Origin: Escherichia coli
GTDB lineage: Bacteria; Pseudomonadota; Gammaproteobacteria; Enterobacterales; Enterobacteriaceae
NCBI RefSeq assembly: GCF_016026235.1
Contig: NZ_CP065613.1
Strand: one strand, 5' to 3'
DNA: 64,000 nt
Shown here: positions 7,475-40,218 of the stretch, piece by piece
How the letters are laid out: each line of letters starts with the position of its first letter
How positions within the stretch are numbered: position 1 is the stretch's first letter
Made by a program: the position numbers and the translations under genes
The notes under the pieces: generated by a model
The model's input: the letters and a program-made list of their open reading frames with translations, nothing else
Told to the model about the DNA's origin: nothing
Databases searched by the model: none

Positions 7475-7516
7475 GCCGGATGCGACGCACGAGTGTTACG
7501 CCTGCCGCATCCGGCG
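7475..7516. repeat. REP-type palindromic element (recD-argA intergenic)
   Basis: Inverted arms gccggatgcg ... cgcatccggc, typical enterobacterial REP. Confidence 0.6.
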
Positions 7517-10923: not shown

Positions 10924-12021
10924 ATGAAAGGACGTTGGGTAAAGTACCTTCTTATGGGCACGGTTGTGGCAATGCTTGCCGCCTGCTCTTCCAAACCAAC
11001 CGATCGCGGACAGCAATATAAAGACGGGAAATTTACCCAGCCTTTCTCTCTGGTGAACCAGCCAGATGCCGTTGGCGCGCCGATTAACGCCGGTGATTTT
11101 GCCGAGCAAATTAACCATATCCGTAATTCATCACCGCGTCTGTATGGCAACCAGAGTAATGTTTATAACGCGGTGCAAGAGTGGCTGCGCGCAGGCGGTG
11201 ATACCCGCAATATGCGCCAGTTCGGCATTGATGCCTGGCAGATGGAAGGTGCCGACAATTATGGTAACGTGCAGTTTACAGGCTATTACACGCCGGTAAT
11301 TCAGGCGCGCCATACCCGCCAGGGCGAGTTCCAGTATCCGATTTACCGTATGCCGCCAAAACGTGGTCGTCTGCCGTCTCGTGCGGAGATCTACGCGGGG
11401 GCATTGAGCGATAAATACATCCTCGCTTACAGCAACTCTCTGATGGATAATTTCATTATGGATGTGCAGGGTAGTGGGTATATCGACTTTGGTGATGGCA
11501 GTCCGCTTAACTTTTTCAGCTATGCAGGGAAAAACGGTCATGCCTATCGCAGCATTGGTAAGGTGCTGATCGACCGTGGCGAAGTGAAAAAAGAAGATAT
11601 GTCGATGCAGGCGATTCGTCACTGGGGCGAAACACACAGTGAAGCCGAGGTTCGCGAGCTGCTGGAACAGAACCCGTCTTTCGTTTTCTTTAAACCGCAA
11701 TCTTTTGCACCGGTGAAAGGGGCAAGTGCGGTGCCGCTGGTTGGCCGTGCTTCTGTTGCCTCTGATCGTTCAATTATTCCGCCAGGTACAACCTTGCTGG
11801 CAGAAGTGCCGCTGCTGGATAATAACGGCAAATTTAACGGTCAGTATGAACTGCGTCTGATGGTGGCACTGGATGTCGGTGGCGCAATCAAAGGCCAACA
11901 CTTCGATATCTATCAAGGGATCGGGCCGGAAGCCGGACACCGCGCAGGTTGGTACAACCACTATGGACGTGTCTGGGTGCTGAAAACGGCTCCGGGCGCA
12001 GGTAACGTCTTTAGCGGCTGA
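10924..12021 (+). CDS. mltA: Membrane-bound lytic murein transglycosylase A (lipoprotein)
   Basis: 365 aa from ATG 10924 (MKGRWVKYLLMGTVVAMLAACSS lipobox); the track ORF 10642.. is an upstream extension running through the tRNA genes. Confidence 0.9.
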   Translation: MKGRWVKYLLMGTVVAMLAACSSKPTDRGQQYKDGKFTQPFSLVNQPDAVGAPINAGDFAEQINHIRNSSPRLYGNQSNVYNAVQEWLRAGGDTRNMRQFGIDAWQMEGADNYGNVQFTGYYTPVIQARHTRQGEFQYPIYRMPPKRGRLPSRAEIYAGALSDKYILAYSNSLMDNFIMDVQGSGYIDFGDGSPLNFFSYAGKNGHAYRSIGKVLIDRGEVKKEDMSMQAIRHWGETHSEAEVRELLEQNPSFVFFKPQSFAPVKGASAVPLVGRASVASDRSIIPPGTTLLAEVPLLDNNGKFNGQYELRLMVALDVGGAIKGQHFDIYQGIGPEAGHRAGWYNHYGRVWVLKTAPGAGNVFSG

Positions 12022-12107
12022 TGTGATATTCTGTATGCCGTTTTTACGGATATGACAGGGTGAGGGATAACCTCACATCCTGATTATTGACTAAGTGCGC
12101 GTTGTTC

Positions 12108-12212
12108 ATGCCGGATGCGGCGTGAACGCCTTATCCAGCCTACAAATCATGCAAATCCAAAATATTGCAGGAGTTATGTAGGCCTGATAAGCGTAGCGCA
12201 TCAGGCATTTAT
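12108..12212. repeat. BIME-like pair of REP palindromes (mltA-tcdA intergenic)
   Basis: tgccggatgcggcgtgaacgccttatccagcctaca and tgtaggcctgataagcgtagcgcatcaggca in opposite orientation. Confidence 0.6.
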
Positions 12213-12259
12213 GCGTTTAGGGTGAGGGATAACCTCGCCCTTTTTAATTCTGAGGTGCT

Positions 12260-13066
12260 ATGTCTGTGGTAATTAGTGATGCATGGCGTCAGCGTTTTGG
12301 TGGCACAGCGCGTCTGTATGGTGAAAAAGCGTTGCAACTGTTTGCTGACGCGCATATTTGTGTGGTCGGTATTGGCGGTGTCGGTTCCTGGGCGGCGGAA
12401 GCGCTGGCGCGCACGGGGATTGGCGCAATCACGCTTATCGATATGGATGATGTGTGCGTCACCAATACCAATCGGCAAATTCATGCCCTGCGCGATAACG
12501 TTGGGCTGGCAAAAGCGGAAGTTATGGCGGAGCGTATTCGCCAGATTAACCCGGAGTGCCGTGTAACGGTGGTGGATGATTTCGTGACGCCGGATAACGT
12601 AGCGCAGTATATGAGCGTGGGTTATTCGTACGTGATTGATGCCATTGATAGTGTACGGCCCAAAGCGGCGCTGATTGCTTATTGTCGGCGCAATAAAATC
12701 CCACTGGTCACAACCGGTGGCGCGGGTGGGCAAATTGACCCGACGCAGATTCAGGTTACCGATCTGGCGAAAACGATTCAGGACCCGCTGGCGGCGAAGT
12801 TGCGTGAGCGCCTGAAAAGCGATTTTGGCGTAGTGAAAAACAGTAAAGGTAAGCTCGGCGTGGATTGCGTGTTCTCTACCGAAGCATTGGTGTATCCGCA
12901 GTCAGATGGTACGGTTTGTGCGATGAAAGCCACGGCGGAAGGGCCAAAGCGGATGGATTGTGCATCTGGATTTGGCGCGGCAACGATGGTGACCGCCACC
13001 TTTGGTTTTGTTGCGGTTTCTCATGCGCTGAAGAAGATGATGGCGAAAGCGGCGCGTCAGGGGTAA
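12260..13066 (+). CDS. tcdA: tRNA threonylcarbamoyladenosine dehydratase (ThiF/MoeB-like)
   Basis: 268 aa; GIGGVGSW nucleotide-binding motif; matches recalled TcdA/CsdL. Confidence 0.9.
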   Translation: MSVVISDAWRQRFGGTARLYGEKALQLFADAHICVVGIGGVGSWAAEALARTGIGAITLIDMDDVCVTNTNRQIHALRDNVGLAKAEVMAERIRQINPECRVTVVDDFVTPDNVAQYMSVGYSYVIDAIDSVRPKAALIAYCRRNKIPLVTTGGAGGQIDPTQIQVTDLAKTIQDPLAAKLRERLKSDFGVVKNSKGKLGVDCVFSTEALVYPQSDGTVCAMKATAEGPKRMDCASGFGAATMVTATFGFVAVSHALKKMMAKAARQG

Positions 13067-40178: not shown

Positions 40179-40218
40179 GTAGGCCGGATAAGGCGTTAAC
40201 GCCGCATCCGGCATAAAC
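40179..40218. repeat. REP element
   Basis: gtaggccggataaggcgttaacgccgcatccggcataaac in the gudD-barA convergent intergenic region. Confidence 0.55.

Follow-up and report, generated by a model that had tools for sequence, protein, structure and literature searches.

The window analyzed here is a 64-kb stretch of Escherichia coli DNA in which mltA, encoding murein transglycosylase A, is followed on the same strand by tcdA. The spacer between the two genes holds two copies of a GC-rich hairpin, with a repetitive unit between them. The features of the locus are as follows:

10924-12021, + strand: mltA coding sequence (murein transglycosylase A), an open reading frame with its stop codon, TGA, at 12019-12021
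12057-12081, + strand: left hairpin copy, AGGGTGAGGGATAACCTCAC-AT-CCT, which includes the exact 18-mer at 12057-12074 and is without a T-tract
12082-12218, + strand: BIME-1 (RIP/RIB-type) unit of 137 bp, placed by alignment to consensus positions 3-140 of the 153-bp family unit
12082-12109, + strand: outer motif at the left end of the unit, GATTATTGACTAAGTGCGCGTTGTTCAT, conserved in other copies and containing the left terminal inverted repeat
12110-12143, + strand: Y-type REP palindrome GCCGGATGCGGCGTGAACGCCTTATCCAGCCTAC, inverted and ending in CTAC, recognized from its sequence, from alignment with other units and from a sub-threshold match to naRNA4 (REP)
12144-12177, + strand: central L linker of 34 bp, which bears an IHF site in the BIME-1 family, recognized from the family motif and Rfam
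12178-12207, + strand: Z1-type REP palindrome GTAGGCCTGATAAGCGTAGCGCATCAGGCA, starting with GTAG, recognized from its sequence, its inverted repeat and alignment with other units
12208-12218, + strand: right outer motif, truncated to TTTATGCGTTT, the family-terminal GCCATCAGTCTCA being absent here
12219-12246, + strand: right hairpin copy, an intrinsic-terminator-like site of mltA, with the stem-loop AGGGTGAGG-GATAA-CCTCGCCCT at 12219-12241 followed by TTTTTA
12260-13066, + strand: tcdA coding sequence, assigned from the open reading frame, the annotation and TcdA homologues with a Pfam ThiF domain

The mltA coding sequence is 1098 nt long in the RefSeq annotation of identical or near-identical loci. 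The ribosome-binding site of tcdA (GAGG, 12252-12255) lies 7 nt past the T-tract of the right hairpin. A consensus scan found no tcdA promoter inside the insert, and the small open reading frames in the spacer (21-36 aa) fall inside REP sequence.

Within the window the 18-mer AGGGTGAGGGATAACCTC has exactly two occurrences, both on the + strand, at 12057-12074 and 12219-12236. About 0.02 matches are expected by chance in a window of this size, and two matches were found in none of 100 shuffles. A sequence-only reading of the same DNA had located the first copy correctly and put the second at 12229-12246, 10 bases off. It had also described ~154 bp with two REPs between the repeats; the two REPs are there, in convergent orientation, in an enclosed segment of 144 bp (162 bp from start to start of the 18-mer copies). 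The full repeat is longer than 18 nt. Each copy is a complete 23-nt hairpin, AGGGTGAGG-GATAA-CCTC(A/G)CCCT, to which the left copy adds a 2-nt AT bulge. In the right copy, a terminator scan identified a 9-bp stem with six G-C pairs followed by TTTTTAATT, and the hairpin folds with −17.2 kcal/mol. The left copy folds with its bulge (CCTCAC-AT-CCT) at −14.7 kcal/mol (z = −3.9), and the BIME-1 unit occupies the place where its T-tract would stand. With a GC-rich stem-loop and a T-tract 3′ of the gene, the right copy is the predicted intrinsic terminator of mltA. The 18-bp repeats are two copies of this terminator hairpin, the whole 23-nt stem-loop being duplicated.

The earlier reading had recognized that its case would fall if the 18-mer belonged to a longer repeat consensus present identically in all strains. 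We searched for further copies in 5,425 E. coli genomes (8,030 places) and found the mltA hairpin once or twice per genome and never more often, so it is locus-specific and not part of a dispersed repeat. No longer dispersed consensus came to light, and the 18-mer is not arranged identically in all strains.

Judged by its sequence, the segment between the hairpins is a BIME-1: it has convergent Y and Z1 REPs, a 34-bp linker and an extragenic position as a single unit at a gene 3′ end. BIME-1 elements consist of a Y REP, an L linker with an IHF site and a Z1 REP, and IHF binds the linker (PMC3333891). Such binding is predicted at 12144-12177, where the linker has two mismatches to the family motif GCAAATTCAATATATTGCAG. 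BLAST homology of the window to ~55 BIME-1 copies at other loci or in other species begins and ends exactly at 12082 and 12218. Compared with the 153-bp family unit, the unit at mltA-tcdA is 2 nt short at its beginning and 13 nt short at its end. Rfam model ES036 (CssrF), a 43-nt transcript-like motif, matches 12143-12185 with 46.5 bits (gathering score 37.6). Since this match to the BIME-1 linker exceeds the gathering score, the CssrF sRNA model appears to describe the central part of a dispersed repeat; it covers the linker and the adjoining REP feet and says nothing on the mobile unit or its flanks. The Y REP has a below-threshold match to naRNA4, which is derived from REP325. Three further REP-like palindromes, all single REPs, are present in the window at 7475-7516, 26256-26286 and 40183-40213. 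None of these three has significant flanking direct repeats (scores of 5.5-7, at the level of the null described below).

We compared the mltA-tcdA region among strains. The full 501-bp query, representing the long allele, is matched in 2,751 of 5,426 complete E. coli genomes. For the remaining genomes the match spans 338-339 bp, and the allele is exactly 162 bp shorter. A query specific to the short allele retrieved it as a contiguous sequence with one hairpin, in several SNP classes, from at least 2,271 E. coli genomes. It is found in B2 (ST131, Nissle) and in B1 serotypes (O111:H8, O104:H4). By alignment, it is a clean empty site in which one hairpin, at the position of the left copy of the long allele, is followed by its T-tract, with no BIME-1. 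The spacer is thus a presence/absence polymorphism, as expected from the insertion or duplication of a repetitive-element cassette that the sequence-only reading had proposed: a precise, 162-bp-shorter empty site with a single hairpin exists in about half of E. coli, and Salmonella also has a single hairpin. Presence/absence polymorphism of BIME-1 among isolates is known (PMC1187871, citing Bachellier 1997). Taken alone, the mltA-tcdA locus is a common and unremarkable BIME-1 insertion polymorphism; the interest lies in the hairpin-duplication signature of the whole family.

Salmonella, Citrobacter and Pseudescherichia served as outgroups at this locus; mltA-tcdA was absent from all E. albertii contigs in the comparison. 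In Salmonella enterica the spacer has no BIME-1 and a single orthologous hairpin, GGGGTGAGGAATAACCTCGCC, whose TTTTTTT tract directly precedes the tcdA ribosome-binding site; for this reason we consider the long form derived and the single hairpin ancestral. In Citrobacter the REP pair is a different one and the terminator is unrelated, with no duplication; the spacer of Pseudescherichia is 41 bp long. As a separate observation, REP-type palindromes of other kinds have independently entered the mltA-tcdA spacer in other genera, with hairpin duplication in none. These comprise a REP-like palindrome upstream of the conserved hairpin in Salmonella enterica (L142 1395-1450), the Citrobacter pair, which has a short linker (L145 468-545), and a Z-type REP directly upstream of tcdA in a relative with a 97%-identical TcdA (L144 1-35, a short contig without the left flank).

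The left flank of the BIME-1 insert, seemingly non-REP, matches other places in E. coli genomes: downstream of mngB, between yqjF and yqjG, downstream of mscK and downstream of tkt. At each of these four places a 153-bp unit lies between two copies of a different, locus-specific GC-rich hairpin. We also scanned species-representative genomes with a linker motif (an AT-rich 17-mer), which gives many chance matches in unrelated taxa. Among the matches listed are units in Escherichia albertii, Pseudocitrobacter faecalis, a Pseudocitrobacter metagenome-assembled genome (MAG) and another E. coli.

We assessed the flanks of the 28 full-length units from E. coli, E. albertii and Pseudocitrobacter against a null of mismatched flank pairs (mean score 5.4, 99th percentile 9.5). 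Direct repeats that abut the unit and score above the 99th percentile, with values up to 24, were found for 17 of the 28, where ~0.3 would be expected; the other 11 have no significant flanking repeat. In the 17 clear cases the repeats are 16-26 nt long (median 22), locus-specific and 82-100% identical between copies. Most of these repeats correspond to one hairpin with at most one unpaired base per end, and in most cases the joints lie within 0-1 nt of the unit. Differences between the copies are about four times commoner in loops (17.7%) than in stems (4.2%; p = 2e-4). That the repeat is the mltA terminator hairpin, and that the same signature flanks BIME-1 genome-wide and across genera, had gone unrecognized in the earlier reading.

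The termini of the unit, AGATTGCTGACAAA and AGACTGATGACAAA, are imperfect terminal inverted repeats with 12 of 14 matches between the consensus ends, and the terminal positions, which read CAGATTG... and ...AGTCTCA, are 80-99% conserved in 27 units. Units truncated at one end keep the hairpin only on the intact side. Among the loci compared, none of eight non-BIME-1 REP clusters has flank repeats. The units lie between convergent genes in 22 of 38 cases and in a divergent region in one, by crude open reading frame calling; the same crude calling gave no bias in orientation relative to transcription (7 vs 8 co-directional cases).

The orthologous loci of Pseudocitrobacter faecalis (L075) and the Pseudocitrobacter MAG (L105) hold a full-length unit with only a 7-8-bp, non-hairpin repeat, ATGCTAT(C). 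This insertion adjoins the end of an open reading frame and is an exception to the rule of hairpin targets. Near-consensus enterobacterial BIME-1 units are also present in sequences labelled as a Bacteroides MAG (L054) and as Desulfosporosinus sp. OT (L067), and these units are probably contaminating or mis-binned Enterobacteriaceae DNA.

Insertion with duplication of a hairpin predicts that single-hairpin empty sites exist at other loci. This prediction was tested with constructed queries. At both loci tested, yqjF-yqjG and downstream of tkt, the constructed empty site exists as a contiguous allele. Nearly all genomes are empty at yqjF-yqjG and the filled allele, 178 bp longer (153+25), is rare. 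Downstream of tkt, the single-unit allele is 174-175 bp longer than the empty one (153+22). This second locus occurs in three states: strain B2C is empty with one hairpin, strain 3385 has one unit between two hairpins, and strain 3059 has two near-identical units (3 differences) with three copies of the hairpin AAGGGCCGCGAAAGCGGCCCTT (L147 60-440; compare L010 and L149). The three states indicate local amplification of a module made of the unit plus a hairpin. A longer array is found in Escherichia albertii NBRC 107761 (L029 1230-1950), with four variant units in tandem and five copies of the hairpin AACCGACGCTTTTGGCGTCGGTT at a period of ~178 bp. Its units have the ends CAGAGTGCTGACAA... and ...GTCTGCAATATCA, the last hairpin copy is degenerate, and the layout of repeat, insert and repeat resembles a CRISPR array.

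Taken over the family, these data show a defined unit inserted at terminator hairpins, with joints at both hairpin feet and the entire hairpin duplicated. We put the probability at roughly 80% that BIME-1 inserted at the mltA terminator hairpin and duplicated it, as one instance of a family-wide integration signature at terminator hairpins. On this account, the ancestral mltA-tcdA spacer would have had one terminator hairpin just upstream of the tcdA ribosome-binding site. Insertion of BIME-1 would have left a complete hairpin on either side, the upstream copy losing the T-tract and the downstream copy keeping it and still reading as a terminator. The long allele may have arisen once and then spread by recombination among E. 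coli lineages, and such spread would account for both alleles being near 50%. The mltA junctions count against the insertion reading in that they are not pristine: the unit lacks 2 nt at its left end and 13 nt at its right end, and a 2-nt bulge interrupts the left hairpin.

Because the duplicated segment is always a whole self-complementary hairpin, 16-26 nt long, the spacing of the joints seems to be set by the target structure and not by a fixed stagger. This leads to a more specific proposal, which we hold tentatively and at clearly less than even odds: BIME-1 would be a structure-targeted element that makes two strand transfers at the feet of extruded terminator hairpins, so that the duplication is the whole hairpin, whatever its length. 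The terminator palindrome would be extruded as a hairpin or cruciform. The two target strands would be broken at hairpin feet that lie across the palindrome from each other, most easily so in the extruded state. Each strand would be attached to one unit end, and the hairpin would be copied on both sides as the gaps are filled. Bending of the linker by IHF may bring the unit ends together. Once in place, the flanking hairpin repeats would allow unequal exchange, giving arrays of alternating hairpins and units and, in principle, precise loss. Joints at the 3′ feet and joints at the 5′ feet give the same product, and for that reason the chemistry cannot be deduced from sequence.

The likely catalyst would be the REP-associated Y1/HUH nuclease TnpA_REP (RAYT). 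This enzyme, which requires GTAG in the REP, cuts single-stranded DNA near the REP at C|T, forming a 5′-phosphotyrosine (PMC3333891). Its gene, yafM, lies outside the window. Both 3′ ends of the consensus unit read TC|T, which is weak evidence for TnpA_REP because C|T is a frequent dinucleotide. The RAYT step is a conjecture, since Y1 transposition as known from IS200/IS605 proceeds on single strands and leaves the target unduplicated (PMC3333891).

The main mechanistic rival, which we regard as unlikely, is copy-choice at stalled hairpins. A replicating strand would stall after the hairpin, switch to a BIME-1 at another terminator and copy it, and return upstream of the hairpin to copy that a second time. 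Hairpin-unit-hairpin is the expected product of such copy-choice, hairpins are known sites of stalling and switching, and donor units are themselves flanked by similar GC-rich stems with T-rich feet that could supply microhomology. Some differences between hairpin copies are also typical of quasi-palindrome switching. At one E. albertii locus (L026) the copies are identical but for an inverted central loop (CAGTAAACTG vs CAGTTTACTG), and an asymmetric T/G mismatch in the stem stays in direct orientation; at a second locus (L022) the copies differ by a compensatory change from C-G to T-A. The loop inversion and the stem-correcting change suggest quasi-palindrome template-switch mutations or selection on the stems. 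However, the unit ends are sharply conserved and carry terminal inverted repeats, which indicates that the ends are recognized rather than that switch points vary. At most of the loci only 0-1 nt separates the unit from its joints, and microhomology between the unrelated hairpins is minimal.

It is likewise unlikely, in our view, that the polymorphism reflects excision, that is, that the two-hairpin long form is ancestral in E. coli and gave rise to short alleles, perhaps more than once, when the repeats recombined or slipped and the BIME-1 was precisely removed. Direct repeats of 18-23 nt can support deletion, and the arrays make clear that they support unequal exchange. Bachellier is said to have termed the absence of BIME-1 ‘excisions’ in 1997, which speaks for this view. 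This view would nevertheless still need a prior duplication of the hairpin around the unit, the single hairpin of Salmonella argues against a long ancestor, and the yqjF-yqjG site is nearly universally empty and rarely filled.

Haplotypes over 2.9 kb in 11 strains, which form a recombination mosaic, bear on both sides of this question. A single left-spacer haplotype is common to the four long alleles, those of the window, O157:H7, a K-12-like strain and EC11, whereas short alleles have at least five, a contrast that also favors the cassette insertion envisaged by the sequence-only reading. The short alleles, more diverse in haplotype, include the most divergent E. coli lineage sampled, 2013C-4282 (~5% divergent). 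Short and long alleles do occur in closely related backgrounds, as in EC11 (long) and O111:H8 (short), which differ by 19 SNPs over 2.9 kb. The two hairpin copies at mltA-tcdA differ at two positions, and either variant is also present among short alleles. In the B2 short allele, the left flank has exactly the haplotype of the long alleles and the hairpin has the variant of their left copy, so reversion could lie behind some of the short alleles. For RIVM_C039227 and strain 4973, a recent repeat-mediated deletion of a long allele was considered as the source of the short allele and found no support: their left-flank SNPs differ from all long alleles, and that of RIVM_C039227, the candidate revertant, is absent from every one of them. 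The 11-strain haplotypes provided no clean case of secondary BIME-1 loss at mltA-tcdA.

A chance repeat, or an unrelated local duplication of the terminator with a BIME inserting later between the copies, has nothing for it beyond bare possibility and is in effect already refuted by the small number of matches expected in the window, by the recurrence of the architecture with different hairpins and exact abutment at at least 17 independent loci, and by empty sites with exactly one hairpin and no two-hairpin, unit-less intermediate seen among them.

We compared the inserted unit with known systems. The mltA-tcdA unit has the same REP composition, order and orientation as the BIME-1, RIP and RIB elements (Gilson 1991; Bachellier 1994; Oppenheim 1993; Boccard and Prentki 1993), and shares with them the 34-bp linker and the occurrence as a single copy at a gene 3′ end. 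The accessible descriptions of those elements give no terminal inverted repeats, 153-bp unit ends or flanking target duplication. The mltA-tcdA unit, a copy shortened by 2 nt and 13 nt at its ends, is bracketed by a duplicated terminator hairpin. With REPINs and their RAYTs (Bertels and Rainey 2011; Nunvar 2010; Ton-Hoang 2012), BIME-1 shares the inverted REP doublet and non-autonomous mobile behavior. It is likewise extragenic, vertically persistent and locally amplifiable. C|T, a frequent dinucleotide that is also the cleavage motif of TnpA_REP, stands at both of its 3′ ends. REPINs are assumed to move by an IS200/IS605-type single-strand mechanism, from which no target-site duplication results (PMC3333891, PMC2817692), whereas a duplication of 16-26 nt is the rule in well-preserved BIME-1 copies.

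Bacterial MITEs such as Correia, ERIC/IRU and RUP are, like BIME-1, short, non-coding and able to fold, and have terminal inverted repeats. BIME-1 also resembles them in its flanking direct repeats and its filled and empty alleles, with a target duplication and a precise empty site. MITE duplications have a fixed, short length of 2-10 bp that is set by a DDE transposase, whereas that of BIME-1 measures 16-26 nt, varying with the targeted hairpin and equal to it in length. According to one review, REPs ‘do not display MITE signatures’ (PMC3184786). To judge by the accessible literature, the combination of MITE-like anatomy with a variable-length, structure-defined target duplication of a host terminator is new. 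The accessible REP, BIME and REPIN literature, which does not extend to the primary papers of the 1990s, makes no mention of terminator or hairpin duplication around BIME-1, and an earlier description there is possible.

Other elements also target intrinsic terminators. Group IIC introns and other terminator-targeting elements resemble BIME-1 in this choice, which spares genes. Group IIC introns insert just downstream of a terminator stem-loop without duplicating it, and encode a reverse transcriptase and a ribozyme. CRISPR integration offers an analogy only: the arrays at tkt and in E. albertii resemble its repeat-insert-repeat products. There, Cas1-Cas2 with IHF makes staggered joints at the borders of a palindromic repeat, on IHF-bent DNA in E. 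coli, and repair duplicates the repeat, so that arrays result. Its insert is a captured 33-bp fragment and that of BIME-1 a fixed 153-bp element; there are no cas genes at the BIME-1 loci, and each BIME-1 target is a different terminator. We know of no evidence that links Cas1 to BIMEs. The geometry proposed for structure-targeted insertion does parallel the duplication of the CRISPR repeat, and we know of no HUH/Y1 transposase or MITE for which such hairpin-foot geometry has been described.

How REPs and BIMEs spread has, to our knowledge, been an open question since the 1980s, and we know of no transposition event that has been reconstituted. The prevailing model, in which RAYT acts in the manner of IS200/IS605 on single strands, predicts no target duplication. 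The footprint reported here is an unexpected clue to the movement of these elements. Its components (terminator targets, joints at the hairpin feet and whole-hairpin duplication) give assays, both in vitro and in vivo, a concrete and testable target and product. The footprint also shows how arrays of hairpins and units grow and offers a simple way to tell filled from empty BIME-1 sites in pan-genomes. Insertion beside genes would preserve termination because one intact terminator copy remains downstream. If targeting by structure is true, it would imply a two-strand, hairpin-foot-specific reaction carried out by TnpA_REP or another enzyme on a unit that IHF may have folded. The accumulation of REPs and BIMEs at gene 3′ ends with terminators left intact would then also be explained.

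At mltA-tcdA, the indel lengthens the 3′ UTR of mltA by 162 nt, containing a hairpin and two REPs, directly upstream of the tcdA ribosome-binding site in about half of the strains. This could affect mltA mRNA stability and read-through into tcdA. The mltA hairpin itself varies at a T·G wobble position of the stem (CCTCGCCC), a state common to Salmonella too. A perfect T-A pair (CCTCACCC) replaces the wobble in the B2 short allele, in the O111 and O104 short alleles, in the left copy of the long alleles and in the right copy of EC11. These changes from T·G to T-A, in several apparently independent contexts, look like recurrent perfecting of the palindrome.
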